Of a stretch of 46,775 nucleotides of DNA, positions 21,152 through 44,028 are shown in pieces (position 1 is the stretch's first letter; the number at the start of each line of letters is the position of its first letter). The notes beneath the pieces were generated by a model. That model made no database searches, was not told where the DNA came from, and saw only the letters and a list, made by a program, of their open reading frames with translations. The position numbers were made by a program, and so were the translations under genes. This DNA is from Reinekea blandensis MED297 (GTDB lineage: Bacteria > Pseudomonadota > Gammaproteobacteria > Pseudomonadales > Natronospirillaceae), in the NCBI RefSeq assembly GCF_000153185.1, contig NZ_CH724155.1, positions 29,678 to 76,452 on the forward strand, read 5' to 3'.

Positions 21152-24100
21152 CTAGCCTTTAGCATCAAAGGATCTGGACGAACCCTCCGTTGACATCTGC
21201 TTCGACAACTCACGAATGTCTTTCTGAATCGCGGTCATCCGATCCAGATTTTTCAGATCGATATTGATCTTGCCATCCATGATTTTTGCCAGTGGCACCA
21301 GGCTGTTCTCAAAGGTATCGGCCAGCGTACTCAACAACTTGTCGATACCGGGAACGGGCTGATTGACCACCTGAACCGGTGGCGCTTCGAACCGAAGATT
21401 GCCGAGCGCCTGTTCTAACGAGGCCAATGAGGACTGTAACGTACTTGCCGTTTGATTCTGACCAGCTTGCTGCAATAACCCTCCGACCTGCTGAATGGCG
21501 CCAACCATATCCATCAGTTGCGATACGACTTTCTGACCGGTGTCGGCATCGTCTCCGCCCAACGCTTTGGCACGCCGAAAGTCCGCCAGGATTTCCTGCC
21601 AGCGCTGCTCGGCGCGTTCGTCTGCGGTGCCTCGTAACTGAGCCAGCTTCATCAGGTTTTCTTCAGTGCCCTGCGTCAGCAACTGCGCCTCACCCTGATA
21701 GTGATCGTCCACCAGCCGGACCAGTTCACTGTCGGTCATGACCGAACTGATTTTTTCCGCCATCTTGTTCATGTTGCGATAGCTGCCCTGCAACTTGAAG
21801 GGTGGCTCCGTTCGGTATTTGTCGGCCGTTGCCGCAGAGGCGATGTACGCCTGATTGACCTTCAGCACAATCGACTGGATCGTCTTCATGTGTTTCAGTA
21901 CCGCCAGGATTTCCTGCAGCTCAGCCGCGTTATAGGTGTGAGACAGCTCATTGCTGTTCACCTGTCCGCGTTGAGCCATGTCGACCAATTTGTACAGATC
22001 GGCCATCTCCCGTGTCGCCAAGGGCGCCAAGACCGAGTTAGACGTCAGGGAGTTTTCCAGATAGCTGAGCGCGAAGACGTCATCTTTACCCGAGAGCACA
22101 TCGCCGAGGTTATAGATGTCTGCCCGGTTCGCCAGCATGTCCGGAATCTGGAACAGCTCGCCACTTTCCGTGTACGGGTTACCCGCCATGACCACGCTGA
22201 ATTTTTTGCCGCGCATGTCGTAGGTTTTGCTTTGCCCTTGCCAAACGCCTTCAATGCGACGCGTACCGTCACACAGGGAAATGAACTTCTGCAAAAACTC
22301 CGGATGCGTGTGCTGAATATCATCAAGATACAGCATGACATTGCTGCCCATTTCCAACGCCAGGTTCAGCTTTTCCAGCTCCTGACGGGCCGCGCTGTGG
22401 GTCGCAGCCCCTGGATCAATCGACGTGATGTCATGGCCGATGGCCGGACAATTGATCTTCATGAACACCAGTCCAAGCCGGTTCGCCACGTACTCCATCA
22501 AGGTGGTTTTACCGTAGCCCGGAGGCGAGATCATCAGCAGCAAACCCATCAGGTCGGTACGTTTGCTGTCACCCACGGTACCCATCTGTTTCGCAAGGTT
22601 GTCACCAATCAACGGCAGGTAGACGTCGCTGATCAACTTGTTACGAACAAAAGATGACAACGGCTTGGCCTTGAACTGATCGAGCCGGAACTCTGAACGG
22701 TACTGTTCCACCAATCGGTTTCGAACGCTCTGCAAGCGCTGCCAGTCGGGCAAGACCCGGGTATGGTGGTCCTGAAGGCGCGCCAGAAAATCATCCAACA
22801 CCAGATCCAGCCCACCGTCGTTTAACCGCTTGTGCTGTCCGTATAGGGGTTCAACACGCATCAGCAGATCCGCCTCCAGATCCCTCAGACTCACCCGAGG
22901 TTCACACAGCAGTAAAGCCCCCGCTTCCATCACAAAGGGCCTCAGAGCAGCGGGGTCTTCCTGTTGGTTCACATAGGCAGACAGCCAGCGCTCGACATGC
23001 GCCCATCGTTGACCGATGGACATGTCAGTCTGTTCCAGAATCTGGTTAAACGACTCGAGCGCATTAGCCTGATCAAGGTGCGACTGAAACGCCGTCAATA
23101 ACTCGCGGGCGTATTTACTGATGGCAAACGCCAACGGCTCGCGCGACAGTTCGGTCAACAAATAGTCCGCGGCTACTGCCGCTTGTGCCGGCGTCAACGG
23201 GAGCTGCTCGGCATCAGCAAACGCCGTCAGCCTTTCCGTAACAGTTGTCTGCAATGCCTTCCAGGCGGCATGACTGTTCAACAGGGAACGTTGCGATGCC
23301 GCACTGCGGGCTTCCAGCGCCCAGTGGGCTTTCTCTGCCTGATGCACCGACCAGAACAAAACCGCCATGGCCCGAACCCGTCCTTCGAAACGGAAAACAT
23401 CGGCCGCCTGATAGGTTGGTATCAACTGACACAGAATGGCCGCTGCATCGTGATCGTGAATGCCTTTTTCATAGCCTTCGCGGTATCGGGTTGCGGCATA
23501 GGGGCGAACCAACGCCAACATGTCTTCAACATCGGTCGACGCCAGTGCCAAAGCATCCAGAGACAAAGCCTCGCGATCGTAACGTGCATCTTCCAACATC
23601 TGATACGCCAGATACTCGGCCCGATACACCTCGTCGGTTTCCGACGGCAGCGCCTGCTCCCAATAGGGCTTCAGGCTGTCCAGCTCGTCATCGTTCACCG
23701 GTTCGTAATAGTCGGTACCGGTCAAATGCAAGGTTTGCACACCATCGCGAACCAATAGCGTCAGATCCAGAGTCTGGGTGTTCACACTGAACTTGTGTTT
23801 GCCCAGTCGAATCACCTGACCGTCGCCTTCGTACAGGTCGGCCTGATCTCGCAACACCCGGATCGCCTGATCTTTCAGTCCTTTCAGGCGGGCATCCAGA
23901 TCGTCGGCCCGAACTACGTCGTCAAGCTCGCGCAACTCGGAAGACAGCCCACGGATTTTCTGCACCAACGCATCTGAGGCAAAGAAGGTGTTCAGCTGAT
24001 CAACATCGCGGAAACTGTTGCAGCGACGTTGAATGCTGCTGAGTATGCGCTCAGCCGCCGAGAACAGGTTTTGCGCCCGACGTTGCAGCGCGGACTGCAG

Positions 24101-26383
24101 TGATTGCTTATGGCTTTCAAACGCTTCGTAAATTTCTTCCCGTTTACTGATGATGTCAGTCAGGAACTGATCGTAGTCGCTGAACTGGCTTTCCAGCTCT
24201 TCGAGCTGAACCAGCAGACGCGCGAGCTGTTCATCGCATTTTTCCGGCGTGTTCGCCATGCCCAGCGCGTTGTTCACGCTCTGGCCCAGCAACTTAAACC
24301 GAGCACCAAACTGCGCGACCGCTTCACTGGACCCCATGCTGTTCTTCTGCTGTTCCAGCTTCGCTTTTTGCTGATTCAACTGACCGTATACACCGGAAAT
24401 CGATTCAACGATCTGCGTTTGTACCGTCGGATCCGTCACTTCTAAGGTCGCCACCAGTTCCGACAACAGATCCAGACTGTTCGATTGCGTTTCAAGTGTT
24501 TCCAGTAAGGGCGCCAGTTCTGCCACGGTCGTGCAGTCTTTGGCGTGTGACTGTACTTGAGTAATGTCATCCCGGTACGGCTCGAACGCATTATCCTGCG
24601 ACAGGAACGCGAGCGTTCGTTGGTTCAAATCACGTTCGAGCTCTGCTAACTCTCCGTCCAATGCATCGAGCCGCTCGGTTTGCATGTAGCGGTAGTCACG
24701 CAACGTCAGCAAATGACCGCGTTGCTCACGAATGGACTGCAACCCGTCAACAAAGGGTTGCGGGCTGTTCCAGGTATCCGGTTTTAAATCAAACTTCAGT
24801 TTTTCAAGTGCACGCTCTGCATCCTTCAGCGCCTGCTCGGACTGCTGCCGGATCGCGGTAACTTTCTCAAACTCATCCAACACCTGCTCGGAGGTTTCAC
24901 CGATCTGTCGGATGATTGGGGTCAGTGCTGCCAGCTCATCAGATTCCAGCCAGAAGTAGCTGTCGAAAAGCCCGGCACAGTGTTTTGAGAGTTGATTAAA
25001 GTGCTCCGCACTGACATCGGTTGTACGCACGGCTCGCACCACGCTGTACAGATCGGAGACGCCTCGAACGAGCTCCGCGTTGCCAATCCGACCAAAGAAG
25101 GTTGACGGTGCCGGTTGCTGACTGACGTATTCATCCGACTGATAAGGCGTTTTCCAGATCTGTAGCGGATGCACCCGCGTCGGTTCCGCCTCGGCGTAAA
25201 ACAGCGCCAGCCGACCGTCATCAAACAACCCGTAACCATGACCGAACAACGGGTTCTGCATGGTTTTGCTGATCAGGTTATAGCCGAACAGACCGACCTT
25301 CCCGGCTTCGGGTTCGTAAAACACATACAGAACGTCTTCACCATTCGGCGAGCGCACCACCCGCTTAAAGCGCATGCCTACCGTATCGTCATCGAAAGAC
25401 TTCAGATCGCCGGTACTGAGGTAATACCCGCCGGGAAACACGATGCCGTGATCTTCAGGTAACTGCACACAGGACTGACCGATGAGATCAATTCGCACCA
25501 CACGCTCGAGTGTTTTATTGAATACCAGATAACGGGTGGTCTCTTCCCGATACGGCAATATTCGCAGAAGAATCAGTTGGCCAAGATCCGCATAGGCCAG
25601 CTGGCAATCATCCAGTGTCTGGCTTTCCACCTCAACCGGTTCACTGTAAATACCCAGTCCGCTGTCGGTGTTGTTCTCAACCTTGATAGTCAAATCACCG
25701 CGCTGGCAGTCGACAAACAGTGTATCGAGTACGCTGTAATGCGGATGCCGGCCTTCGACGATGTCGTCGCGACCGCACTCGGTCCATTCAAAGTCAAACC
25801 GCGGCGGCAAGGCAATGTCCCGCTCGCCCCGATTGTCGATGTACTCGGTAACATTACCCTGCGCATCCAGAGACCAGCGAAACACGCGCTGATCACTTAA
25901 CCGGTCACCAATCTGAAACGCCGCCAACAGTTTATTGTCTTTCACCGTCAGCTGAATCAGGTGCGTCTGTTTGTAATAGGCGTAGAGTTCTTCAAACTCG
26001 GTCACGAAGCGCTGATCACTCAGGAAGGTACCGCTGAGGGCAACCTCTTCCACCTCAAACTGGCCGTCCCGTTCAACGGGTCGGAACAGTGCAAACACAT
26101 CGTTGACGCGTGTGGTTTTACGCAGCCCGATGTTGACGTTGTAACCCAGCAGAATCCACTCACCGACGCGAACCAGGTCGCGTGCAATGCTGTTGTTTTC
26201 CGTGCGCAGCCGAACGCGACCGGCCACTTCCATGTCAGTACTGCCGAACTCAGCCTGACGGGCATCATTGAGTTGTTGTGTCTGTTGCTCAAGCGCCCGG
26301 CCCTGTTCCATCAACCGGTTGTGCAGGACCTCGTAGGCTCCGCCTTGCGCGACGGCCTGATCGATGTCGTGAGAATCGCTCAT
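21152..26383 (-). CDS. Giant (1743 aa) protein with a C-terminal AAA_5 (MoxR/McrB/dynein-like) ATPase domain, function unknown
   Basis: One uninterrupted 5.2-kb ORF. Walker A ISPPGYGKTTLMEY near aa 1285, Walker B MLYLDDIQ, sensor-1-like VVMAGNP and the arginine-containing LANRADIY. The N-terminal 450 aa is a mixed beta-rich region. About 800 aa of predicted helical/coiled-coil sequence sits in the middle, and an about 300-aa helical tail follows the ATPase. Confidence 0.8.
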   Translation of the reverse strand: MSDSHDIDQAVAQGGAYEVLHNRLMEQGRALEQQTQQLNDARQAEFGSTDMEVAGRVRLRTENNSIARDLVRVGEWILLGYNVNIGLRKTTRVNDVFALFRPVERDGQFEVEEVALSGTFLSDQRFVTEFEELYAYYKQTHLIQLTVKDNKLLAAFQIGDRLSDQRVFRWSLDAQGNVTEYIDNRGERDIALPPRFDFEWTECGRDDIVEGRHPHYSVLDTLFVDCQRGDLTIKVENNTDSGLGIYSEPVEVESQTLDDCQLAYADLGQLILLRILPYREETTRYLVFNKTLERVVRIDLIGQSCVQLPEDHGIVFPGGYYLSTGDLKSFDDDTVGMRFKRVVRSPNGEDVLYVFYEPEAGKVGLFGYNLISKTMQNPLFGHGYGLFDDGRLALFYAEAEPTRVHPLQIWKTPYQSDEYVSQQPAPSTFFGRIGNAELVRGVSDLYSVVRAVRTTDVSAEHFNQLSKHCAGLFDSYFWLESDELAALTPIIRQIGETSEQVLDEFEKVTAIRQQSEQALKDAERALEKLKFDLKPDTWNSPQPFVDGLQSIREQRGHLLTLRDYRYMQTERLDALDGELAELERDLNQRTLAFLSQDNAFEPYRDDITQVQSHAKDCTTVAELAPLLETLETQSNSLDLLSELVATLEVTDPTVQTQIVESISGVYGQLNQQKAKLEQQKNSMGSSEAVAQFGARFKLLGQSVNNALGMANTPEKCDEQLARLLVQLEELESQFSDYDQFLTDIISKREEIYEAFESHKQSLQSALQRRAQNLFSAAERILSSIQRRCNSFRDVDQLNTFFASDALVQKIRGLSSELRELDDVVRADDLDARLKGLKDQAIRVLRDQADLYEGDGQVIRLGKHKFSVNTQTLDLTLLVRDGVQTLHLTGTDYYEPVNDDELDSLKPYWEQALPSETDEVYRAEYLAYQMLEDARYDREALSLDALALASTDVEDMLALVRPYAATRYREGYEKGIHDHDAAAILCQLIPTYQAADVFRFEGRVRAMAVLFWSVHQAEKAHWALEARSAASQRSLLNSHAAWKALQTTVTERLTAFADAEQLPLTPAQAAVAADYLLTELSREPLAFAISKYARELLTAFQSHLDQANALESFNQILEQTDMSIGQRWAHVERWLSAYVNQQEDPAALRPFVMEAGALLLCEPRVSLRDLEADLLMRVEPLYGQHKRLNDGGLDLVLDDFLARLQDHHTRVLPDWQRLQSVRNRLVEQYRSEFRLDQFKAKPLSSFVRNKLISDVYLPLIGDNLAKQMGTVGDSKRTDLMGLLLMISPPGYGKTTLMEYVANRLGLVFMKINCPAIGHDITSIDPGAATHSAARQELEKLNLALEMGSNVMLYLDDIQHTHPEFLQKFISLCDGTRRIEGVWQGQSKTYDMRGKKFSVVMAGNPYTESGELFQIPDMLANRADIYNLGDVLSGKDDVFALSYLENSLTSNSVLAPLATREMADLYKLVDMAQRGQVNSNELSHTYNAAELQEILAVLKHMKTIQSIVLKVNQAYIASAATADKYRTEPPFKLQGSYRNMNKMAEKISSVMTDSELVRLVDDHYQGEAQLLTQGTEENLMKLAQLRGTADERAEQRWQEILADFRRAKALGGDDADTGQKVVSQLMDMVGAIQQVGGLLQQAGQNQTASTLQSSLASLEQALGNLRFEAPPVQVVNQPVPGIDKLLSTLADTFENSLVPLAKIMDGKINIDLKNLDRMTAIQKDIRELSKQMSTEGSSRSFDAKG

Positions 26384-26490
26384 CTGTTTTCCTTGCAGAA
26401 CGACAGCGACCTGCCTGACGACAGGCGCTGTTTGAATCCGTGAAACCCAGCTCGGTTCAAATGATAAGCCGGGTGTCTGTCAGCCGGGAC

Positions 26491-28482
26491 TTAGTTAACC
26501 TTGTCGGCTGGGGCTGGTGTCTTACCGGCCGTCATGAAACGCTGCATGATCTGTTGCAACATCGGACTTTCGGTTAACAGACCATCGATGGCTTTGCCCA
26601 TGCCCATGCCGGAGGCCATCTTGTTGAAGTAGTCGCCATCGCCACCGATGATATCGATGTTGGAGTTCTCGAAGGCCGAGGCCATGATGCTGGCCTGATC
26701 TTTGGAGATCTCTTTGTTGGCGTCCAGTTTCGCCTGAACTTCTGTCAGTGCGGCTTCAAGGCGCATCTTGAACTCTTCAAACTCACGCGCTTCGGTGCTC
26801 ATGTTGTTCATGGCATTGAACTTCGCCGTCAGACCATCGGCCTCGGCATTGGCACGCTCACGGATAACCGCTGAATCGGCCAGACCTTTTTCACGGCTCG
26901 CTTCGGCTTCCGCCAGGCCTTTCTGACGGCTGGCTTCTGCTTCCGCCAGACCCTGCTCACGCAGCCCGTTGGCTTCGGCATTGAGGCGCTCTTCCAGTAC
27001 TTTGGCCTGCATGAGCCCTTCTTTCTCGCGGGCAATGGCCTGGGCTTCGATGACACGCGCTTCGGCCTGACCTTCTTTCTCCAGCGCCTCGGCTTTCGCC
27101 GCCTGCACCTTGGCGGCCGCCAAACCAGAGGCCGCGTGCGTAGCCTGGTCGCCCTCGGCTTTCTTCTTTGCTGCTTCGGCTTGCTTGCTGGACGCTTCCA
27201 GTTCGGCCTGAGCCATCAGCTGAATTTCTTTGGCTTTGTGAACCGCCTGCTGTTCTTCGGCTTCGGCCGCTTTCACCTGCTTGATCTTTTCTTCTTCGGA
27301 GGTCGCTTCCGCTTCCATGATGCGAACCTGTTTCAGACGATCCGCCTCAGAAATTTCCCGCACCTCTTTAATGCGTTCTTCTTCTTCGGCGACCTTCTTC
27401 TCAACAGCGATGCGTTCAGACACGGTGTTGGCAATGATCTTACGCTCTTCTTCCAGGGCCTTTTCTTTGTCGATCCGTTGCAGTTCAACTTCACGTTCGC
27501 GGTTCACCGCTTCCAGTTCGCGCGCCTTAACGACCTTCTCTTCTTCGATCGCCAGGGCTCGTTCCTTGGCTTTATTGGCAATCTCAACCTGACGGTTTTT
27601 GTTGACATCCTGTACTGCAATTTCTTCTTCGGTACGGATGCGGGCTTCTTCCGACTTCAGTCGTTCTTCCTGCTGAACCTTCAGTGTTTCGGCTTCTTCC
27701 CGGGCTTTCAGCGTTTCCACTTCGCGCTTCTGACGGGCCACCGCATCGGCTTCCTGGCGTTCCAGTGCCAATAGGGCTTCACGCGTTTCAACATTCTTCT
27801 TGTTGATCGCCAGCGCCTGATCTTTTTCCAGACGGTTCGTCTCAATGCTTTGTGTGGCCGTCACTTCCGTGATGCGACGGATACCCTCCGAATCGAGAAT
27901 GTTGAACGGGTCGAGTTCTGACTTTGGTGTCTGTTCCAGGTAATCGATGGCAACGTCTTCGAGGACATAGCCGTTCAGATCCTGCCCGATCACTTCGATG
28001 ATCTGTTCACGGAACTGAATCCGGTTTTCGAACAGTTCCAGGAAGTTCATTTTTTTACCGACGGTCTTCAATGCTTCAGAGAACTTGGCATTGAACAGCT
28101 CGTTAACGGCTTCGCGATCAGACGCTCGATCTACGCCGATGGCCTTCGCCACCTTGAGCACGTCGTCCTGGGTTTCATTGACGCGCAAATAGAAAGCCAC
28201 GTTGATATCGGCCCGCAGATTATCTTTACAGATCAACCCGTCCTTGGCCCGCCGATCCAGCTCCAGGGTGATCAGCGAGATCTTCATGACTTCCATTTTG
28301 TGAACAACCGGCAACACAAACCCACCGGTGAAAAACACCTTCGGTTTGGCGGACATGTCGTTCACGATCATCGCATAACCCTGCGGGATCTTTTTATAGA
28401 ACGCATTAAACAGCAGGGCTAAAAACAGCAGTACGCCGAAGATAACACCGCCCCAGATTAAGATGGGCATGATCAGTTCCAT
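26491..28482 (-). CDS. Flotillin-like SPFH/Band-7 protein (YqiK-like) with an extended Glu/Ala/Lys-rich coiled coil
   Basis: N-terminal TM (ILIWGGVIFGVLLFLALLF), an SPFH domain, then about 350 aa of EA-rich coiled coil with internal 11-aa repeats (GLAEAEASRQKGLAEAEASREKGLAD). AAGGAG RBS 8 nt upstream. Confidence 0.85.
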   Translation of the reverse strand: MELIMPILIWGGVIFGVLLFLALLFNAFYKKIPQGYAMIVNDMSAKPKVFFTGGFVLPVVHKMEVMKISLITLELDRRAKDGLICKDNLRADINVAFYLRVNETQDDVLKVAKAIGVDRASDREAVNELFNAKFSEALKTVGKKMNFLELFENRIQFREQIIEVIGQDLNGYVLEDVAIDYLEQTPKSELDPFNILDSEGIRRITEVTATQSIETNRLEKDQALAINKKNVETREALLALERQEADAVARQKREVETLKAREEAETLKVQQEERLKSEEARIRTEEEIAVQDVNKNRQVEIANKAKERALAIEEEKVVKARELEAVNREREVELQRIDKEKALEEERKIIANTVSERIAVEKKVAEEEERIKEVREISEADRLKQVRIMEAEATSEEEKIKQVKAAEAEEQQAVHKAKEIQLMAQAELEASSKQAEAAKKKAEGDQATHAASGLAAAKVQAAKAEALEKEGQAEARVIEAQAIAREKEGLMQAKVLEERLNAEANGLREQGLAEAEASRQKGLAEAEASREKGLADSAVIRERANAEADGLTAKFNAMNNMSTEAREFEEFKMRLEAALTEVQAKLDANKEISKDQASIMASAFENSNIDIIGGDGDYFNKMASGMGMGKAIDGLLTESPMLQQIMQRFMTAGKTPAPADKVN
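26881..26979 (-). repeat. 3 x 33-bp imperfect in-frame tandem repeat inside the flotillin coiled-coil region
   Basis: Units cagacctttttcacggctcgcttcggcttccgc, caggcctttctgacggctggcttctgcttccgc and cagaccctgctcacgcagcccgttggcttcggc. They encode LAEAEASRxKG repeats. Confidence 0.6.
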
Positions 28483-28530
28483 TTCTGTGTGCTCCTTTGC
28501 TTAGAAATGCTCAGTACGAGTCGTCGTGGT

Positions 28531-29157
28531 TTAGTGTGTTTGTGCGAGCTGAAAACAGCCCTGCTCGGGAATGAATCGCACGATGGTGACCTCATCACCG
28601 GATTTATAACCGAGGTGCGCCGGTGCCCGAACCTGAATGATCAGACTGGCGCCTTCGTAGTTAAAATGGGCCTCGCCGAAGGTTTCATCGACGCGGCTTG
28701 AACGGATGGTGCAGTTTTTTCCAATGGCATAGCGACCAAGAACCTGTCGTTGTGCTTTGCCGAAGAGTTTGCGTAAGGGACGGATGGTGATCGCGGTGCA
28801 GGGAATGGCCACCACAAACGCCCCTAGCGAAATGACGGTACCAATCAGCCAACTCATCAGCCCCGCCTCGGACGGCATCACCAGGTAAGCGGCAAAGTAA
28901 CTGGCTAACCAGGCGTAAAGCGCCAGCAACGTCAGGATCACCGGAACCGGGACGCCTGTCAGACCAAAGGTTGAGAGCCAGCCGGCAACACCGGGCAGCT
29001 CCGCATCGGCATCGACATCGAGGTCGACATCCACGCCCGGTATGTCAAAGTCGGCCATGCCAAGCATGGCGATGACCAGGAACAGCAGGCAGATGAGTAA
29101 AGCCGTGGTCCAGATCGCCGTCGGGAACGACAGGCTGATGTGTAAAAAAGTGTCCAT
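28531..29157 (-). CDS. YqiJ/NfeD-like membrane protein (flotillin partner, C-terminal OB-fold)
   Basis: Multi-TM N-terminal half and a C-terminal soluble beta domain, the same architecture as E. coli YqiJ. Immediately upstream of the flotillin gene, as in the yqiJK pair. Confidence 0.7.
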   Translation of the reverse strand: MDTFLHISLSFPTAIWTTALLICLLFLVIAMLGMADFDIPGVDVDLDVDADAELPGVAGWLSTFGLTGVPVPVILTLLALYAWLASYFAAYLVMPSEAGLMSWLIGTVISLGAFVVAIPCTAITIRPLRKLFGKAQRQVLGRYAIGKNCTIRSSRVDETFGEAHFNYEGASLIIQVRAPAHLGYKSGDEVTIVRFIPEQGCFQLAQTH

Positions 29158-29158
29158 G

Positions 29159-29488
29159 TTACTCCTCAGCAGACGAGGTTTGACTCCATTGCAGCAACTC
29201 CTGCGCTGCGCGTTCTTTAATCGCTAAGTGATCCGCCGGATCAATGCCATAGCGTTCTGCCAGCAAAGCCATTTCATCGGCGGACAGGCTGATGGTCAGA
29301 CGCGGCCGAACCGGTTTTTTCACCGGTAACCCGAGAATACTGCGAATCTGATCCGACGGTGTGCGATCGGCTTTAATCGCTGATGTCTTGATCCGGCGCT
29401 GTGCGTCGGTCGAGATATCAAAGGCGATCTGCACCGCTTTTATCGCGCGTCGTTCGTCCGGCCAGTAGTCCTCGGGTTGCTTTGCCAT
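29159..29488 (-). CDS. Hypothetical protein
   Basis: 109-aa ORF tightly packed (2-bp gap) before the YqiJ-like gene. No recognised domain. Confidence 0.4.
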   Translation of the reverse strand: MAKQPEDYWPDERRAIKAVQIAFDISTDAQRRIKTSAIKADRTPSDQIRSILGLPVKKPVRPRLTISLSADEMALLAERYGIDPADHLAIKERAAQELLQWSQTSSAEE

Positions 29489-29495
29489 GGCGGCC

Positions 29496-29735
29496 TCAGG
29501 CGTTATTCAGATAAGACTGCAGTTCGGTAATCTTACGGCCCAGTTCGGCGTCGATTTCTTCCGGGCGGACCCGATCCAGAATGTTGCCGAGAACGCGTCG
29601 TTCGTTGTCATCAATCTCACCATCACGCAGGGCAATGTTGATCAGTTCGTCAAACTCAGCGGCGTCCAGTTTACCGTCGTCGGTAAACGCCTGAATGGAG
29701 CGAAACGACAGTTCCAGATAATCACGGTTTTCCAT
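29496..29735 (-). CDS. Hypothetical small protein, TerB-like motifs
   Basis: 79 aa, acidic, with two xDGxxDxxExxxL-type motifs (TDDGKLDAAEFDELI and RDGEIDDNERRVL) reminiscent of the TerB/DjlA-N family. Confidence 0.4.
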   Translation of the reverse strand: MENRDYLELSFRSIQAFTDDGKLDAAEFDELINIALRDGEIDDNERRVLGNILDRVRPEEIDAELGRKITELQSYLNNA

Positions 29736-30426
29736 GGTTGGTTTCCTTTTTCAGTTGGGCCAGTATGGCGTCCGGACTGTCGTCATCCCAGACGATGCCG
29801 GCTTGTTGGTATTGCAGTTTGGTGTCCTGTGACTGCTGCAGGTCGGTCTCGGCCTGCCATTGATCCTGAGCGCGCTGCTGCCGTGCGCGTATGCGCTCGA
29901 CTGAGGCGCGTGCATTGGTCAGTGATTCGGTCCCCTCGGCCAGATGATCACGCAAAGCGAGAGTGGTCTGATGCATGGTTTGGCTGGTCGTCAGCATGTC
30001 TCGTTCCCGGAGCAGTTCGCCGAGATCGCTCTGCGCGCGATTCAACTGATAACGGGCACGGGCGGTCTGCGCGGAAACTTCACTCAACTCTGTTTGCAGC
30101 GATTGCATTTGGTGACGACATTCTGATATCTGCTGCGCATGTACCGCCGCCTGAGTTTCCTGACCGGCCTGCAGAGCCGAACGGGCCTGTGTTTGCAAGT
30201 GCTGCTGTTCACGTTCCAACTTGTCGAGTCGTTGTACCAGGCTCTGTTCGGTCGACTCCATGGTTCGAAACGCGGTTTCCGCCTGCGACAGAATCGATTG
30301 AGATCGGGCAATGGAAGCTTCCAGTCGGTGATCCTGTTGCTGATCGACCGTCTCGGGGACATCTCCAACCGCGCTCGATATTTCGACAACGCTGCGTTTT
30401 AACAGTGAGATCAGTTTACTGAGCAT
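29722..30426 (-). CDS. PspA/IM30 (ESCRT-III-like) family protein, YjfJ-like paralog
   Basis: Predicted all-helical coiled coil of the IM30 size class. N-terminus MLSKLISLLKRSVVEISSAV parallels the PspA MGIFSR..I.. amphipathic start. GAGGAGG RBS 8 nt upstream of the chosen ATG. It follows a YjfI-like gene as in the E. coli yjfIJ pair. Confidence 0.65.
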   Translation of the reverse strand: MLSKLISLLKRSVVEISSAVGDVPETVDQQQDHRLEASIARSQSILSQAETAFRTMESTEQSLVQRLDKLEREQQHLQTQARSALQAGQETQAAVHAQQISECRHQMQSLQTELSEVSAQTARARYQLNRAQSDLGELLRERDMLTTSQTMHQTTLALRDHLAEGTESLTNARASVERIRARQQRAQDQWQAETDLQQSQDTKLQYQQAGIVWDDDSPDAILAQLKKETNHGKP

Positions 30427-30439
30427 GGGTCCGTCCTCC

Positions 30440-30847
30440 TCAGCGCAGATAGGGTTCAAAAGCCAGTAATGCCTGTTGAGCATTTTCAGCCAGCGTTACC
30501 AGTTCGGTTGCAATCAGATGGGTATCGGAATCCAAGGCCAGGGCTCCGAAAGCGACGTAATAGTTTTCAACCAGCGCAAACGCACTTAATGGCATCGGCA
30601 CGTTCAGTTCAAGCAGCAGAGCGTTCAGTTGGGTTTCGCGGTCATCACGAATCTCAGCGCGATGTGCCAGGTAGGCAATGCATAAAATCTGGGTATCGGT
30701 ATGGGTGACAAAGATCGGAGGGTCATTCAAATGCTCCACTTCCACCCGCAGGACCGAATGATCGCCCTGAATCGGCATGCAATGGAAACGATGTCCCTCA
30801 AACTGACTGCTGTCGAGGAATGCGTTGAGCTGTTGCAATCGGGTCAT
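30440..30847 (-). CDS. YjfI-like protein (DUF2170)
   Basis: The C-terminal VENYYVAFGALALDSDTHLIATELVTLAENAQQALLAFE closely parallels the E. coli YjfI C-terminus (EEYYIVFGALSLKSSLEDILLEITSLVDNALDLAEI). Start chosen at MTRLQ with GGGAGG 5 nt upstream. Its stop overlaps the RBS of the next gene. Confidence 0.65.
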   Translation of the reverse strand: MTRLQQLNAFLDSSQFEGHRFHCMPIQGDHSVLRVEVEHLNDPPIFVTHTDTQILCIAYLAHRAEIRDDRETQLNALLLELNVPMPLSAFALVENYYVAFGALALDSDTHLIATELVTLAENAQQALLAFEPYLR

Positions 30848-30874: not shown

Positions 30875-30953
30875 TTGACATAATATGTCGGTCATCCTGA
30901 CCGAGCGGGACATATTATGTCAAACAGTTACGAACGAAAGTGACTTTTGTCAC
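30875..30953. promoter_or_regulatory. Cluster of perfect palindromes in the divergent promoter region: a 15-bp inverted repeat with a nested 5-bp IR, plus a second 5-bp IR
   Basis: TTGACATAATATGTC (30875-30889) and GACATATTATGTCAA (30909-30923) are exact reverse complements. The 19-bp spacer contains GGTCAtccTGACC. GTGACttttGTCAC follows at 30940-30953. The arm also reads as a -35-like TTGACA fused to TAATAT. Confidence 0.55.
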
Positions 30954-33900
30954 AGCTTTTGAGTGTGTGGTTTCCATTTGGCGCAACCACCAGAAAGCCG
31001 TTAAGATCTGCCCTCCATGCTTCCAAGGATCGGGCCGTGTCCACTTCCGCCATTGCTGATGTCATCCGCTACTACCGGGATTGCTTCCAGGCGTCGTTTT
31101 TCTCTTCCGCCGGGTACGGCTTATTTGATCAGAAAGATCTGGTGCCTTTGGCCATTGCGCACCTGGATGACGGCATTCCCTGGTCGGAGCAATGGCAGCA
31201 GCAATATGTGATCGATGCCGATCAGGTCCATCTGATGCGCATCGACGGCATCACCTTGATTCCGGAACCCAACAGCGCAGCCACGACCGATGCCCACTAT
31301 CGCCCGTCCCGCGTCGCGCAGATGAACGCCTGGGCCGATAACCCCCAGGCCGAGCCGGACTGGGACGAGGAGTGGCAACAACAGTTACAGGCCGATACCG
31401 AACCGGCCCCTCAATTAACGGTGGCCTCACTGCCGAGCCTGTCGAACCTGGCCGACTGGTTGCAAGAGCAGGCCGAGCAATCCACGGAACGCCGGCAACT
31501 GGCCGTCAGTGTGTTGTTTTTGATGCCCAAAAACTTTCGTGCGACCGCGCACAAAGCCGATTTCGTTGCCTATCTCGACCGGCTGACCCACCAGCATCAC
31601 AACCCCGACAGTCTGCTGTGGCAAAGTCTGCTGCGACAGTCTGTTATGCCGGTTACGACCACACCGACGCCCGAACTGCCCTTTTTATCTCAGCGCCAGA
31701 ACCAGGCGTTGCACAGCGCCCGTACGCGTCGGTTTTCGCTGATCCAGGGTCCGCCCGGGACCGGCAAAAGCCGGCTACTCGCCACGTTGGCGGCGCAACT
31801 GGCCAGTGACAACAAAGCCGTCTTGCTGACCAGCCACAGCGACCATGCCCTGACCGTACTGCGGGAAAAACTGGTGCAGGATATCGGTCTTGATGAGCGC
31901 TGGCTGGTTCATATCGGACCGGGACGTCGGACCCGAAAGCTGGCCGAACACCTGTCGCGGCTACTGACCCGAAGTGACGAACCTGCGGCGCCCACTCGCG
32001 CGATGCCCGGCGCGTGGGCGGACTTCCATCGCAGCGAGACACGCCTGCGCCGGCAACTGGCTCGTGAACCCCAACTGACAGAGAACTGGCTAACCGGCGA
32101 GCTGACCGGTTCGCAATCATTGAAACGCCGATGGTGGTCACTGTGGCACCGCGACCATCATCACCTCAACCGCACCATCGATACCCTGCATGCCTCGGTC
32201 GATCAACTCGCCCGAGCGTTCGGTGCCGATCTTAACCGACAACTGCACCAGGCTTTTCAGTTTTCGCGGACTAAGAACAGTGACGCCTGGTCCACCTTGG
32301 CACAGCGCCTGAAACGCGGCAGTCTTCGCGAAAGCGTTGGCCATCTGAATCAGCGCCGGGACGATGTGTTTACACCCACCGATGGGCTGAAAATCTGGTT
32401 AATCAAACTGGATGATCTGCCCGAACAGGCTTTTGGCCTGTTCGACACCGTCATCATCGACGAAGCGACGCAGGTCAATATGGCGGAAGCCATTCCGGCA
32501 CTGGCGCTGAGCCGTCATGCCGTGGTGGCCGGCGACCCCCGACAACTTCGACATTACAGCTTTTTGAGCCGCGAACAGGAGGCCCGCATTGCCGGCAGCC
32601 TGAATCTGAACCCGGACGATGTCGTCAGCTTCCGCGACACCAGCCTGCTCGACTACAGCGAACAGTACCTGACAGGTATTTCAGCCTTTGATGCCTGCCA
32701 CCAGCTCGACGAACACTATCGTTCCGTGCCGCCATTGATGGATTTCAACAGCCGACAGTTTTATCAGGGCGATGTCCAGGTGCTGACCGGGCTGAATCAG
32801 GTCAACAGTCTCAAGCTGCACCTGAACTGGGTGATGACCGAAGGACAACGGGTTAACAAAATCAATCAGGCTGAGGCTTCCGTGCTTATCGAGCATCTGA
32901 CGCAGCTGATCAACCGCGAACGGAACCAACCGGTTAGCAAAAAAACGACTCTCGGGGTGCTTTCATTTTTCCGCGATCAGACGGAGCACCTGAAACAACA
33001 GATTCTGCAAACCTGTTCACTCAGTGACATTCGCGCGCATCAGGTTAAGGTGGGTACGCCCTTTTCGTTTCAGGGTGAAGAGCGCGACCACATGCTGATT
33101 TCCTGTGCTATCGACGATCACAGCCACCCCGGCACCTGGGGGTATCTGAATCAACCGGATGTATTCAATGTGGCGACATCCCGTGCCAGACGCCAACAGA
33201 CGCTGTTTCTGTCGGCCAGTCCAGCCGAACTGCCGGTTAACTCGGTGCTACGCAGCTATTACGATTTCAGCCGCACACCACCAACCTCGGCAACCGCACC
33301 GGAACAGAGCCTGCCCTGGTTACGACACCTGTTACCCGCACTTCAGGACGCGGGCTTCCGTACCCTGGCACAGCAATACATCGCCGACATCCCCATCGAT
33401 TTGATTCTGGAAGCCGATGGCCGGACGCTGGCTGTCGACCTGATCGGTTTTCCTTCCGAGGTCGGTCAGGCGATTCATCTGGACCGTTACCTGGCCCTGT
33501 TCCGCGCGGGTATTCCCTTGTTTCCGTTCAGTGCCCGGGAATGGGTCTTAAACCCCAATGGTTTGATCGAAGACCTGCTTCGCTGGGCCGGACAATACGA
33601 TCATCGACTATCGATGGAGTCCCCCAAGGAAACAACACCCGGCTCTGACTTCATTCCTGCCAAACTCTGGCAAGGGCTTTCTCGATGCCAGCAAAGTCCG
33701 GACGTGCAACAGGAGTTCACCGATGCTGAGTTGCAACTCACTGACCAGATTCACCGGCTTGAAACCCTGTTGAGCAGCCTCTTTCAACCCGGCTCAGTGA
33801 CGTATCTACGATATCAATCGGCTATTACCTCAGTGGCAGGTCAGACACTGGAAAACCTGGAAACCTACCGGTTGCTGTTCAGTCAGGTCTGGGAACAGGG

Positions 33901-37347: not shown

Positions 37348-37564
37348 TGTTTTTCGTTCCTTCTGGTCAATCGGCCATGGGAAGGGCATGATCTTGCACG
37401 CGGACGGTAACCGTCCAGTGCCAAAAGCCGTAAACCGGTCAGGACCTTTCCTCTGAGTCCTGATTGCCGGGGCCTGATAACACTAATTCAACCCTACCGG
37501 TCTGGCGCGGATTCATTACACTACGCCATCACGACCCAGTTCAACCGGCAAAGAAGGAAATCTC

Positions 37565-41138: not shown

Positions 41139-41630
41139 TCAATCCTGTATTTTTGAAAACTCGCGATCCAGCTCAAACCGCTTGGATGTCACGTAACGCT
41201 CCATACGTCCGACGCGATCCACGACTTCGTTCATTCGCTCCTTGGCGGTGTCCAGTCGATCGCTGGCACTGCCCTGATAACGAAACATATTGACTGGTCG
41301 ATCCTGGTGCAGGTTTTCATCATAACGATAACGCTGATGAATCACCGAGCCTTTCGGCCGAGGTGCCATGGCAAACCAAGCGCCAATGTAGGCCCACACC
41401 ATCAACATGTTAAAGAAGAAAAAACCGCCAACGGTAATCAGGCGCACGACCCAAGGCTCAACATTAAAGTGATCGGCCAGGCCAGCACAGACACCGGCCA
41501 CCTTTTTGTCTCGCGTATTGCGATAAAGGTTCATACCAAACCCTTGTCGGCGGCGTTCCCACCAGTCTTCCGGTGAGTAGGGATCCGGTCGGTGCCGGCG
41601 CGCACGTCGATCCTGTTTTGAGTAACTCAT
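41139..41630 (-). CDS. pspC: Phage shock protein C
   Basis: PspC domain (LYRNTRDKKVAGVCAGLADHFNVEPWVVRLI) followed by a TM. Confidence 0.8.
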   Translation of the reverse strand: MSYSKQDRRARRHRPDPYSPEDWWERRRQGFGMNLYRNTRDKKVAGVCAGLADHFNVEPWVVRLITVGGFFFFNMLMVWAYIGAWFAMAPRPKGSVIHQRYRYDENLHQDRPVNMFRYQGSASDRLDTAKERMNEVVDRVGRMERYVTSKRFELDREFSKIQD

Positions 41631-41639
41631 ATCGCCTCC

Positions 41640-41882
41640 TTACTCCCGAGTCGCATCACGGCGCCAGCGCGGGTTCCGTTCATCGAGTATGGACTCCAGT
41701 GCTTCCATCCGATCGGCCAGAGAGTCCAAGGTTCTGAGCAAATCGTCCAGGGTCGCCTGATCACTGTCACTCAGACCCCGACTGGTTTTGCTTTTATGTT
41801 TGTAGTGCATGACCAGCCAGATCGGCATGACCACGACCATAAACAAAATGGTCGGCACAAATAGAAATTCGAAAAATTGCAT
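41640..41882 (-). CDS. pspB: Phage shock protein B
   Basis: 80 aa. N-terminal TM then LSDSDQATLDDLLRTLDSLADRMEALESIL, matching the PspB leucine-zipper-like region. Confidence 0.8.
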   Translation of the reverse strand: MQFFEFLFVPTILFMVVVMPIWLVMHYKHKSKTSRGLSDSDQATLDDLLRTLDSLADRMEALESILDERNPRWRRDATRE

Positions 41883-41970
41883 AACTGTCTCCTGTTAAAA
41901 CAGCTTCGCACCAAGGGTCCGAAGCTGTATGTCCTGTTATCGCCGGCTGCGAGCCATCGTACCGAGGCGA

Positions 41971-42648
41971 TCAGTCGTCCTTCTTAGGAGACAGGTCAGC
42001 TTTCAATCGTTCCAGTTCGGCATTGATTGAATCATCCTGTGCCAGTGAATCAATTTCATTTTTCAATGACTGCTTCACATCGCGACCCAGATCTTCCGCT
42101 TCCAGCTGACTTTCCATGTTATCCATCCGGCGCTCGTAGTGCTCGAACTTTTCAAAGGCATCGTTGAGCGCGTCCTTGTTCAGTTGCGACCGTGTTTTCA
42201 TCCGCGTTGATACGGTTTTCTGTCGCATCATCATGGTTTTCTGCTTCGCTTTGGCATCGTTCAGTTTGGTCTGCAGCTGAGCGATTTCTTCAGACAAGTG
42301 CGCCAAATGATCGTCGAGAGCATTAAACTCCTGCTCGACCACTTTGATTTCATCCAGCAGACCTTGCTTTTCAGACAAGGCCGCCCGGGCGAGATCTTCA
42401 CGACCTTTTTCCAGAGCCAGTCGCGCTTTGCCTTCCCAGTCATCGGCTTCGGATTGCAACCGGTCCAGACGACGTTGCGCGTCTTTCTTATCGGCGATGA
42501 CCCGGGCCGAACTGGAACGGACTTCCACCAAAGTTTCTTCCATTTCCTGAATGATCAGGCGAATCATTTTTTCCGGATCTTCCGCACGATCCAGAATCGC
42601 GTTGAGGTTACTGTTAATGATGTCGCTTAAACGTGAAAAAATACCCAT
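41971..42648 (-). CDS. pspA: Phage shock protein A (IM30/ESCRT-III-like)
   Basis: MGIFSRLSDIINSNLNAILDRAEDPEKMIRLIIQEMEETLVEVR is near-identical in pattern to the E. coli PspA N-terminus. 225-aa coiled coil. Confidence 0.92.
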   Translation of the reverse strand: MGIFSRLSDIINSNLNAILDRAEDPEKMIRLIIQEMEETLVEVRSSSARVIADKKDAQRRLDRLQSEADDWEGKARLALEKGREDLARAALSEKQGLLDEIKVVEQEFNALDDHLAHLSEEIAQLQTKLNDAKAKQKTMMMRQKTVSTRMKTRSQLNKDALNDAFEKFEHYERRMDNMESQLEAEDLGRDVKQSLKNEIDSLAQDDSINAELERLKADLSPKKDD

Positions 42649-42694
42649 TGTCTTTCTCCTGCGATAAATAAAAGTCAGTCGGTTCCGCGTCCGT

Positions 42695-42853
42695 CTACAG
42701 GCGTTTCAGCCAGCGGGACACCGATTCAAGCACCAGGGCACTGAGACCAAAGCCAAGAATGCCTGCCCACACCACGGTCACGGTTGCCAACGCGCTGTTC
42801 AGCGTGATCAACCCGAGATAGAGCGGTGCGCGATCGGATACATTGATAAGTTC
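42695..42853 (-). CDS. Small (52 aa) single-TM protein encoded between the sigma-54 promoter and pspA
   Basis: ATG at 42853 preceded by a perfect AGGAGG with 7-nt spacing. Hydrophobic core LGLITLNSALATVTVVWAGILGFGLSALVL. It lies about 30 nt downstream of the predicted -12 element. Confidence 0.5.
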   Translation of the reverse strand, partial: ELINVSDRAPLYLGLITLNSALATVTVVWAGILGFGLSALVLESVSRWLKRL

Positions 42854-42893
42854 CATTTTCAAACCTCCTGATGAGTGTTCTTGATATTCCTTT

Positions 42894-42909
42894 ATCAGGA
42901 TCCGTGCCA
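42894..42909 (-). promoter_or_regulatory. Sigma-54 (-24/-12) promoter candidate for the psp operon
   Basis: The minus-strand sequence TGGCACGGATCCTGAT has a perfect -24 TGGCAC(G) and an imperfect -12 element with correct spacing. It lies between the divergent pspF and the psp operon. Confidence 0.5.
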
Positions 42910-43026
42910 TTTCTTTAACTCATTGATTTAAAAGGACTTATTAAACAAATGACCTATAGCCCATCGTATTGACTGAGCAAACTGACTATATTGTTTAGCC
43001 AATTCAGCGAAACAAGGTCGCGACCG

Positions 43027-44028
43027 ATGTCCCGGAACCAACCGCAGCGCCTCATTGGCGAAAGCAGCGCCCTGTCCGATGTGCTGGATCAGGTCTCGCA
43101 GGTCGCCCCGTTAAACCGTCCGGTACTGATCATCGGTGAACGAGGTACCGGTAAAGAGTTGATTGCCGAGCGCCTTCATTTCCTGTCGTCCCGATGGGAG
43201 CAACCCTTCCTGAAGGTCAACTGCGGCGCCATCAGTGAATCTTTGCTGGACGCCGATCTGTTCGGCTATGAACCCGGCGCGTTCACCGGCGCTAACCGTG
43301 TCCATAAAGGACGTTTCGAGCGCGCGGATGAGGGCACACTGTTTCTGGACGAGTTGGGCAATATGTCCCAGGCCCTGCAGGAAAAACTGCTGCGCATCAT
43401 CGAGTACGGCGAGTTTGAACGCCTCGGTGGACAGAAAACGCTGCATGCGAACGTCCGCATCGTTGCGGCAACCAATGAAAACCTGCCGAAGCTGGCGCGG
43501 GAAGGTCGTTTTCGTGAAGACTTATTGGACCGCTTAGCCTTCGATGTGCTGACCTTGCCACCCCTGCGCTCACGCGATAACGACATCGAACGGTTGGCGG
43601 AACACTTTGCGATCGCCATGAGCATTGAGCTGGGCTGGGAAGACTTCCCAGGCTTTACCGACCGAGCATTGGCGCAATTAGCCGCACACCCATTTCACGG
43701 TAACGTACGTGAGTTGAAAAACGTCATTGAGCGTAGTGTGTACCGATGGGGCATTCCGGCTGAGCCGATTGACCATCTGGTGATTGATCCGTTTGACTCG
43801 CCGTGGGCACCGGCCTCATCGTCCACCGCGGAACAACAAGGCATCCCGATGAGCATTGATCCGGCACTGGGGTTCAGTGAACAGGTGGCCCGCTATGAGG
43901 TTCACCTGCTGAAGCAAGCGCTCGACCAAAACGATGAACATCAGGGTAAAGCCGCTGAGGCACTAGGGCTGACCTATCATCAGTTTCGCAGTCAGTTGAA
44001 AAAGCATGGGTTGATTGGGGTTAAGTAG
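43027..44028 (+). CDS. pspF: Psp operon transcriptional activator, sigma-54-dependent enhancer-binding protein lacking a regulatory N-domain
   Basis: Collinear with E. coli PspF from the first residues (LIGESSALSDVLDQVS.., VLIIGERGTGKELIA, GAFTGA, the GAFTGA-containing loop, FLDELG, and a C-terminal HTH AAEALGLTYHQFRSQLKKHGL). Confidence 0.9.
   Translation: MSRNQPQRLIGESSALSDVLDQVSQVAPLNRPVLIIGERGTGKELIAERLHFLSSRWEQPFLKVNCGAISESLLDADLFGYEPGAFTGANRVHKGRFERADEGTLFLDELGNMSQALQEKLLRIIEYGEFERLGGQKTLHANVRIVAATNENLPKLAREGRFREDLLDRLAFDVLTLPPLRSRDNDIERLAEHFAIAMSIELGWEDFPGFTDRALAQLAAHPFHGNVRELKNVIERSVYRWGIPAEPIDHLVIDPFDSPWAPASSSTAEQQGIPMSIDPALGFSEQVARYEVHLLKQALDQNDEHQGKAAEALGLTYHQFRSQLKKHGLIGVK

Follow-up and report, generated by a model that had tools for sequence, protein, structure and literature searches.

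A stretch of 46,775 nt from Reinekea blandensis MED297 (contig NZ_CH724155.1, positions 29,678 to 76,452; hereafter the window, in whose numbering all coordinates are given) carries seven head-to-tail open reading frames (ORFs) on the minus strand, which encode in order a YjfI protein, a PspA-like protein, two small proteins of 79 and 109 aa (p79 and p109), a YqiJ-like protein, a flotillin and a DUF3686/AAA+ ATPase. Of these, YjfI, the PspA-like protein and the flotillin each show 100% identity to NCBI entries for this species. The original prediction had singled out the range 26491–30847 as a second PspA-family system linked to a flotillin pair: the genes lie at or near the positions it assigned to them, whilst the ATPase gene (21152–26383), the promoter and the operator had been left out. 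The explanation that fits best, and that we hold with good confidence as a whole, is that the six genes from yjfI to flotillin are the first part of a seven-gene operon including the giant ATPase, and that this operon is a member of a published type of PspA/flotillin/AAA+ envelope-stress operon, the studied example of which is bacABCDEF from Pseudomonas aeruginosa. Within this type the Reinekea operon is a mosaic, with a short-YjfI/PspA/p109 front end joined to a YqiJ/flotillin/ATPase back end, and it is preceded by a conserved promoter/operator of repressor type that has apparently not been described so far.

The packing of the genes is tight, with gaps from yjfI to the ATPase gene of 13, -14, 7, 1, 48 and 107 nt. 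The first gene, yjfI (30440..30847, minus strand, as are all seven; 135 aa), is a short bacA-like gene encoding a DUF2170 protein with a CesT/Tir-like chaperone fold; its start at 30847 is correct, since NCBI also calls a protein of 135 aa and the ATG of the longer ORF falls inside an operator box. The pspA-like gene (29722..30426; 234 aa), encoding a YjfJ/BacB-type PspA of the IM30/ESCRT-III-like family, begins 13 nt past the yjfI stop, and this stop sits in its ribosome-binding site (ctgcgcTGAGGAGGacggacccATG; overlap element TGAGGAGG), as the original prediction had noticed. The pspA-like stop is in turn overlapped by 14 nt by the ORF of p79 (29496..29735; 79 aa), a small four-helix protein at the edge of the TerB clan. 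The pattern of a stop codon within the Shine-Dalgarno sequence is also found ahead of p109 (29159..29488; 109 aa; TGAGGccgccATG), a probable tandem ribbon-helix-helix (RHH) regulator, and the start context of the yqiJ-like gene is GGAGtaacATG. The latter gene (28531..29157; 208 aa) encodes a BacC-type, YqiJ/YuaF-like membrane protein with a C-terminal NfeD-like beta domain, and is followed by the flotillin gene (26491..28482; 663 aa), the YqiK-type or BacD protein with an N-terminal transmembrane segment, an SPFH domain and a long Glu/Ala-rich coiled coil, and by the BacE-type giant ATPase gene (21152..26383; 1743 aa; DUF3686, DUF7902 and AAA+). In the 107-nt spacer between flotillin and ATPase (26384–26490, minus strand) two stable hairpins lacking a U tract are predicted (-41.3 kcal/mol, z -3.1); as attenuator or stabiliser they may determine the ratio of flotillin to ATPase. 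Terminator-like matches did not exceed shuffled expectation, and no known RNA was found by Rfam in the region from 20.5 to 31.3 kb.

The identity of YjfI is well defined: it scores 104 bits against Pfam DUF2170 (PF09938; cutoff 27), matches the BacA crystal structure (PDB ID: 8Q8O) with an E value of 4e-4 and shares 48–53% identity with proteins of the Kangiellaceae type. Its alignment to Escherichia coli YjfI, which had been described as good, establishes homology by BLASTP (E 2e-9), although with 27% identity over 102 aa this description was generous. The NCBIfam BacA equivalog (NF050185; 206 positions, cutoff 300 bits) is not reached by YjfI, which scores 42.9 bits over profile positions 73–203 only and thus represents a short form. 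The PspA assignment of the second protein passed verification with hidden Markov models, exceeding the Pfam PspA_IM30 (PF04012) cutoff of 33.9 bits with 49.5 bits over residues 33–229. Pairwise BLASTP of this protein to E. coli YjfJ was not significant (E 0.12), a search of the PDB with the protein alone returned coiled-coil noise only, and tblastn with BacB proteins of other loci finds the canonical PspA of the window instead of the PspA-like protein. We built a profile from nine BacB/YjfJ-type proteins from which the Reinekea and E. coli sequences were excluded: the PspA-like protein reached 63 bits and E. coli YjfJ 155 bits, compared to 30 bits for the canonical PspA. Since the PspA-like protein also has the C-terminal AGI...S..(I/V)LA(Q/R)LK motif in common with BacB/YjfJ-type proteins, the label "YjfJ-type" given to it as a paralog behind a DUF2170 YjfI holds. 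The stretch MLSKLISLLKRSVVEI... of this protein was inspected, at the level of sequence, with regard to the predicted helical hairpin of ESCRT-III type and the N-terminal membrane-binding amphipathic helix of the PspA family. The canonical locus from which the paralog has to be distinguished lies where it had been reported, at 41–44 kb (41139..44028): it comprises pspF (42991–44028, plus strand) and, on the minus strand, pspA (41971–42648), pspB (41640–41882) and pspC (41139–41630), with Pfam matches to PspA_IM30 (145 bits), Sigma54_activat (210 bits) and PspC (68.5 bits) and with a PspB-like ORF of 80 aa as pspB.

The flotillin and YqiJ-like assignments depend on family profiles. For the flotillin, Pfam Band_7 (PF01145) gave no match, Flot (PF15975) remained below threshold (E 0.004; 17.7 bits against a cutoff of 27), NCBIfam FloT was matched at 5e-9 and under its cutoff, and PDB sequence searches with the protein alone and as profile returned nothing; comparison of its family profile with E. 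coli YqiK by hhalign, however, gave a probability of 99.8% (E 1e-29, 383 columns). The YqiJ-like protein similarly lacks a significant Pfam match (YqiJ_N, E 0.26) and a PDB match as profile, and hhalign aligns it to E. coli YqiJ with a probability of 84% (E 7e-6), which makes it a probable member of that family. The YqiJ-like gene lies directly upstream of the flotillin gene in every locus examined. With regard to the ATPase, Pfam identifies DUF3686 (636 bits), DUF7902 (93.5 bits) and AAA_5/AAA, and both the Walker A (PPGYGKTT) and the Walker B (LYLDD) motifs are intact in the translation; literature searches on DUF3686 returned nothing relevant. The flotillin has more than 7800 homologs and is 58–69% identical across genera, and the giant ATPase, at 53–56% identity in every related locus of sufficient length, is its most conserved partner. 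At the same loci the PspA-like protein shares 20–27% identity with its BacB-type counterparts, and it hence evolves much faster than its partners.

As the PspA-like protein was too diverged to serve as a query (a word-indexed homolog search found 3 relatives), the flotillin and an alignment of YjfI proteins were used to find related neighbourhoods. Among the 15 closest loci from the flotillin-anchored scan of genome contigs, the YqiJ-like gene stands upstream of flotillin in all 15, the ATPase follows in all loci that extend far enough, and a PspA gene lies upstream in 10, 9 of these with YjfI. Two other Reinekea-type contigs (L102 and L103 in our numbering of loci) are fully syntenic, including p79, p109 and a divergent helicase gene, and the PspA/flotillin combination recurs in Kangiellaceae, Aliikangiella, Oceanospirillaceae, Pseudomonadaceae, Lysobacter, Hahella, Bacterioplanoides and Aurantivibrio, as well as in Bacteroidetes according to Ravi et al. 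(PMC11237479). The arrangement is therefore not specific to this strain, and recurrence of the same combination across many lineages makes the functional partnership that had been suggested for the two families look likely. The metagenome scan with the YjfI alignment returned 80 loci and reveals the modular structure behind the mosaic: of 30 short-yjfI loci with at least 6 kb of downstream sequence, 24 show a spermine-synthase/DUF4178 context (with an upstream gene of spermine-synthase-like type and with DUF4178 separating pspA from p109), yqiJ-flotillin-ATPase follows in 5, and in two more (L030 and L035) this module is divergent. Genes for phospholipase D (PLDc_2), rhomboid protease, spermine synthase or DUF4178 were not found in the window. 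A rhomboid gene (Pfam Rhomboid, 67–76 bits) is a frequent extra elsewhere, either between p109 and yqiJ (L006, L007, L013, L016, L023–L032) or after the ATPase gene (L104, L105), with PLDc_2 as the alternative last gene.

The second dyad type carries a long YjfI, or BacA. Genes of this kind were traced in Pseudomonadaceae, Lysobacter, Bacterioplanoides, Hahella, Aurantivibrio and one further genome, in loci with the order DUF2170, PspA_IM30, a protein of ~220 aa, one of ~660 aa, DUF3686/AAA+ and then PLDc_2 or rhomboid. The loci from Pseudomonadaceae (L017) and Lysobacter (L019) encode DUF2170, PspA_IM30, proteins of ~213 and ~680 aa, DUF3686/AAA and PLDc_2, and four further BacA-type genomes exhibit the same gene order. 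L017 BacA matches 8Q8O with an E value of 9e-50, and identities to BacA, BacC, BacD and BacE of this type amount to 30, 34, 59 and 54% for the window proteins, respectively, the YqiJ-like protein and the flotillin thus corresponding at 34% and 59% to the BacC and BacD positions of the Pseudomonadaceae locus.

In P. aeruginosa, bacABCDEF (PA3732–PA3727) has been under study since 2008 (PMC2587700, PMC10948618): a mutant in PA3731 (BacB) is defective in biofilm formation, swarming, rhamnolipid production and virulence (PMC2587700), whilst the six genes form one transcript by reverse transcription PCR (RT-PCR) and BacB to BacF accumulate 6–13 fold in a bacA mutant (PMC10948618). The window shares with this operon, in the same order, a DUF2170 chaperone-like protein, a PspA_IM30 protein, a membrane protein of ~210 aa, a flotillin-like protein of ~680 aa and a DUF3686/AAA+ ATPase of ~1740 aa, with 30–59% identity to the ortholog set from Pseudomonadaceae and with the match of YjfI to 8Q8O. 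It differs in the short YjfI (135 aa), which lacks the N-terminal extension of ~48 aa found in BacA, in the insertion of separate p109 and p79 genes between pspA and yqiJ, and in its operator; furthermore, whilst equivalents of A to E are present in order, there is no phospholipase D (bacF), so that the full six-gene series A to F is not represented. The wider operon type, comprising CesT/Tir-PspA, YqiJ/YuaF, band-7/flotillin and a beta-propeller AAA+ protein, was described by Ravi et al. (mSystems 2024; PMC11237479) with a representative from Dokdonia (Bacteroidetes). All four described components of this class are present in the window in the same order, with the beta-propeller taken from the class description; the Dokdonia representative uses another CesT family, however, where the window uses the DUF2170 type, and the front half of the window operon (short YjfI, PspA, RHH) belongs elsewhere to a second class of the same authors, namely 7TM-spermine-synthase-like (seven-transmembrane), CesT/Tir, PspA, DUF4178 and (RHH) (PMC11237479). 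With this second class the window has in common the order of short YjfI, PspA and p109 homolog and an identical pair of GACATAWTATGTC elements before yjfI, although in place of spermine synthase and DUF4178 it carries the flotillin/ATPase module. The arrangement that had been called unusual is consequently a published one, with a bac homolog known since 2008 (PMC11237479, PMC2587700, PMC10948618).

More distant systems share parts of this design. E. coli possesses the homologous YjfI, YjfJ, YqiJ and YqiK families, but its yjfIJ (followed, as had been stated, by yjfKLMC) and yqiJK lie ~1.2 Mb apart, polyamine-related genes follow yjfIJ and no giant ATPase is attached. In Bacillus subtilis PspA depends on the SPFH protein YdjI to reach the membrane, a "hardwired connection" (PMC8581546), and the pspA-ydjGHI operon, in which PspA is encoded with an SPFH-domain protein, provides an experimental precedent for the proposed partnership; its further partners are nevertheless different (YdjG/H, TPM domain), it has neither a CesT-like chaperone nor an AAA+ ATPase, and YdjI is not of YqiK type. 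The joint encoding of a polymer-former of the ESCRT-III superfamily with an AAA+ ATPase recalls ESCRT-III/Vps4 of archaea and eukaryotes by analogy only: the ATPase, which spans 1743 aa and contains DUF3686 and DUF7902, is unrelated to Vps4 by homology, and no interaction of MIT-MIM type is known, so that the likeness would be one of logic and not of membership.

Ahead of yjfI, the sequence of the minus strand is TTGACATAATATGTC-(19 nt)-GACATATTATGTCAA, placing two copies of the 13-bp unit GACATAWTATGTC, which is itself palindromic, in a promoter/operator at 30875..30923 (minus strand). This region holds a -35 element TTGACA (30923–30918), an 18-nt spacer and a -10-like CAGGAT (30899–30894); box 1 (GACATAATATGTC; 30921–30909, minus strand) overlaps the -35 element and box 2 (GACATATTATGTC; 30889–30877, minus strand) covers the inferred start site. 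No further match to the unit occurs in the window, even with 2 mismatches allowed. In the metagenome loci surveyed for boxes (L022–L101), at least two boxes lie upstream of short yjfI in 61 of the 67 loci with upstream sequence, compared to ~0.03 exact boxes expected by chance in 0.85 Mb of these loci; the pair is also present in seven genome loci (L003, L006, L007, L012, L013, L015, L016) and in both other Reinekea-type contigs. Across loci the spacing of the boxes is 17–24 nt and their flanks are not conserved, whilst a perfect -35 element TTGACA is fused to box 1 in every case and a TAnnnT -10 element lies in the spacer 17–18 nt downstream, with the weaker CAGGAT in the three Reinekea loci. 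Such a layout on a promoter of sigma-70 type is, judged by its sequence, the classic arrangement for a repressor; searches for the operator sequences returned nothing relevant in the searchable literature. Where the flotillin module is divergent, in L030, the yqiJ-flotillin unit and the yjfI-pspA-p109 unit each have a box pair of their own (1053–1094 and 1369–1419), which points to co-regulation of the two modules even without co-transcription, and in L035 (9730–9865) degenerate boxes lie on both sides of the divergent units; this suggests that the divergent units in L030 and L035 form a shared regulon. A third box occurs ~3.9 kb upstream in loci of the spermine-synthase type. In the window a CRP-like site (TGTGA-N6-TCACT; 30939..30954, minus strand), whose function is predicted from its motif, lies ~60 nt upstream of the inferred transcription start and is conserved in the three Reinekea-type loci (the window, L102 and L103).

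The candidate ligand of these boxes is p109, which is 51–57% identical to proteins of Kangiellaceae-type loci and has a homolog in all 52 short-yjfI loci with enough downstream DNA. The boxes are confined to loci with p109, the sole exception being L005 with a single box and no p109. Foldseek, Pfam and PDB profile searches with p109 gave no significant match; its AlphaFold2 (AF2) model shows, at low confidence, two beta-alpha-alpha units, and the gene at this position is called an RHH factor by Ravi et al. (PMC11237479). On the strength of fold pattern, gene position and co-occurrence with the boxes, p109 is a probable tandem RHH DNA-binding regulator with a putative repressor role: the ORF that had been listed as hypothetical is real, whilst this label missed its likely function.

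The BacA-type loci lack both p109 and the GACATA boxes and instead exhibit, in eight cases (L008, L009, L017, L019, L104–L107), two palindromes with an ACATGT core (TCACATGTGA or TTACATGTAA) ~100 nt upstream of bacA, where the window has GACATAWTATGTC. The palindromes flank TTGAC(A) in most of these eight loci, and at least six of them have a TAnnnT element that ends 6–8 nt before the ATG of long BacA. This proximity suggests a leaderless bacA mRNA, and Pseudomonas BacA is, as judged from this spacing, probably made from such an mRNA. The long BacA proteins (206–235 aa) further share a conserved N-terminal extension of ~48 aa, which weakly matches the Pfam MazE-like family (RHH clan) in 5 of 5 cases and after which the 8Q8O construct (146 aa) begins. 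These matches hint that Pseudomonas BacA may carry an unrecognised N-terminal DNA-binding domain; a DNA-binding domain fused to BacA would explain the derepression seen in bacA mutants and, if true, would place this phenotype in a new light.

The remaining small protein, p79, displays two D-G-x-(L/I)-D-x-x-E motifs. Its AF2 model is a four-helix bundle (mean predicted local distance difference test score, pLDDT, 78.7) for which no significant PDB fold match was found and no TerB structure appeared among the results; a PDB profile search was equally negative, and the only Pfam match is a weak one to DUF533 of the TerB clan (E 0.09). Among 45 relatives found by HMMER and then scanned, TerB (PF05099 clan) is matched at E<0.01 by 7 (best 5e-5) and DUF533 by 3, whilst EF-hand models are matched by 3–4. 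The designation "TerB-like" that had been given to p79 is thus plausible from its sequence, yet not established. The family comprises at least 150 representatives, nearly all of 75–90 aa, and is mobile in position among bac-type operons: homologs with 50–60% identity stand between pspA and yqiJ in the three Reinekea loci and Hahella, precede bacA in L009, Lysobacter and L106, and follow the ATPase or rhomboid gene in L008 and Bacterioplanoides; none is present in Kangiellaceae-type loci.

Two neighbouring genes were also noted. A divergent superfamily 1 (SF1) helicase gene (30947–34084, plus strand; AAA_11/AAA_12), for which the listed TTG start is probably too far upstream, is a conserved neighbour of the operon in each of the three Reinekea-type loci. 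L005 has a homolog upstream, and the helicase is absent from all other related loci. A large ORF at 35164–37389 (minus strand) has a syntenic gene in L102 and L103 that encodes a protein of 722–727 aa of the membrane-associated LemA family (with a faint GIDE match), the assignment being made through these two contigs only.

A mechanism compatible with these observations can be outlined. In the resting state, p109 would bind the two GACATAWTATGTC palindromes over the -35 element and the start site and keep the operon repressed, whilst YjfI as a CesT-like chaperone would hold the PspA-like protein in the cytoplasm. On stress, PspA would shift to the membrane and YjfI may pass this on to the repressor through partner switching; operons of the BacA type would have the RHH-like and chaperone domains fused in a single protein. 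The flotillin and its YqiJ/NfeD-like partner could form a scaffold in the membrane to which the ESCRT-III-like PspA polymer is recruited, the AAA+ ATPase, by analogy to Vps4, may remodel or recycle the PspA assembly, and p79 could be a small cation-binding accessory, maybe a cation sensor. A bolder version, in which the locus embodies both an undescribed control circuit and a bacterial counterpart of calcium-triggered ESCRT-III wound repair (p109 as tandem-RHH repressor of a GACATAWTATGTC regulon common to PspA dyads and flotillin units, YjfI as partner switch between PspA and this repressor, p79 as TerB/EF-hand-like cation sensor and the ATPase in the role of Vps4), appears distinctly unlikely to us.

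None of the rival explanations, namely chance adjacency, sigma-54 control, another factor on the boxes or a role in defence or repair, is favoured by the data. The one we take most seriously, and still consider unlikely, accepts the boxes as real operators and has them bound by a different factor, such as a global regulator or YjfI itself, with another role for p109: the lack of a significant match of p109 to any DNA-binding family and the retention of one box without p109 in L005 would fit this, but p109 and box co-occur strictly over more than 60 loci in two operon contexts, loci of the BacA type lack both and combine a different box with a fused N-terminal domain (weak MazE-like/RHH matches in 5/5), and an RHH factor is precisely what Ravi et al. 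name at the p109 position (PMC11237479). Alternatively, sigma-54 and an activator of PspF type could drive the operon, as in canonical psp, with the palindromes not being the main control. An RpoN/sigma-54 site upstream of bacA was proposed in both Pseudomonas papers (PMC2587700, PMC10948618) and the window contains a pspF gene at a distance of 12 kb; however, no GG-N10-GC (-24/-12) element is found in the 350 nt upstream of yjfI, the perfect TTGACA fused to box 1 is conserved across loci together with a TAnnnT -10 element, and in the BacA-type loci TTGAC(A) mostly lies between the palindromes with TAnnnT shortly before the ATG (6–8 nt; at least 6/8), all of which renders this option quite improbable.

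It could also be argued that the PspA dyad and the flotillin/ATPase module are independent systems that merely stand side by side without any partnership, given that each module is also found without the other: the dyad is missing from 5 of the 15 closest flotillin loci, the majority of short yjfI-pspA-p109 modules (24/30) belong to the spermine-synthase/DUF4178 context and E. coli keeps yjfIJ far from yqiJK. Many families, and Bacteroidetes as well, nevertheless show the fusion, which recurs with two dyad types (short YjfI with p109, or long BacA), the same operator pair is found on both units where they are divergent (L030), and in P. aeruginosa the six proteins are co-transcribed and rise together in the bacA mutant (PMC10948618), which makes mere adjacency very improbable. 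Hardly any credence can be given to a phage-defence or DNA-repair system in place of a membrane system, a notion that draws on the Pfam text for DUF3686 ("ATPase involved in DNA repair") and on the SF1 helicase with MkoA-like similarity (PADLOC, 136 bits) that adjoins the operon in three Reinekea loci and lies upstream in L005. With PADLOC, none of the operon genes matched a defence system, and their proteins gave no meaningful match beyond coiled-coil noise, on which grounds the defence reading was rejected; moreover, 5 of the 7 products belong to membrane or membrane-remodelling families, the helicase is missing from all other related loci, and the accessory genes found elsewhere, phospholipase D and rhomboid protease, act on lipids and membrane proteins.

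Several points nonetheless weigh against the seven-gene bac-type operon under p109 control that we favour. The divergence of the PspA-like protein defeats pairwise searches against BacB and YjfJ, and the RHH assignment of p109 draws on the position of the gene and on a model of low confidence (pLDDT 63.6). A consensus promoter scan found no sigma-70 site, the -10 element CAGGAT of the window being weak, and the Pseudomonas authors favour a sigma-54 promoter together with protein-protein contacts over an operator (PMC2587700, PMC10948618). For co-transcription in Reinekea the evidence consists of the gene spacing and the RT-PCR from Pseudomonas, and the stable fold of the 107-nt spacer between flotillin and ATPase (z -3.1) could attenuate read-through into the last gene. 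For the effector steps, recruitment and remodelling, we infer by analogy what this operon type would do.

The central idea of the original prediction, a link between PspA and flotillin, is thus sound but not new, and the copy in Reinekea extends what has been catalogued in print only slightly. What we did not find in the searchable literature are new handles on this system: a sharply defined operator with a candidate repressor, an operator common to separately transcribed flotillin and PspA units, and the hint of a DNA-binding domain at the N-terminus of BacA. In uniting PspA with a chaperone of its own, a flotillin as scaffold and an AAA+ ATPase, this type of operon is a natural object for studying how the bacterial ESCRT-III-like PspA is recruited, powered and recycled.

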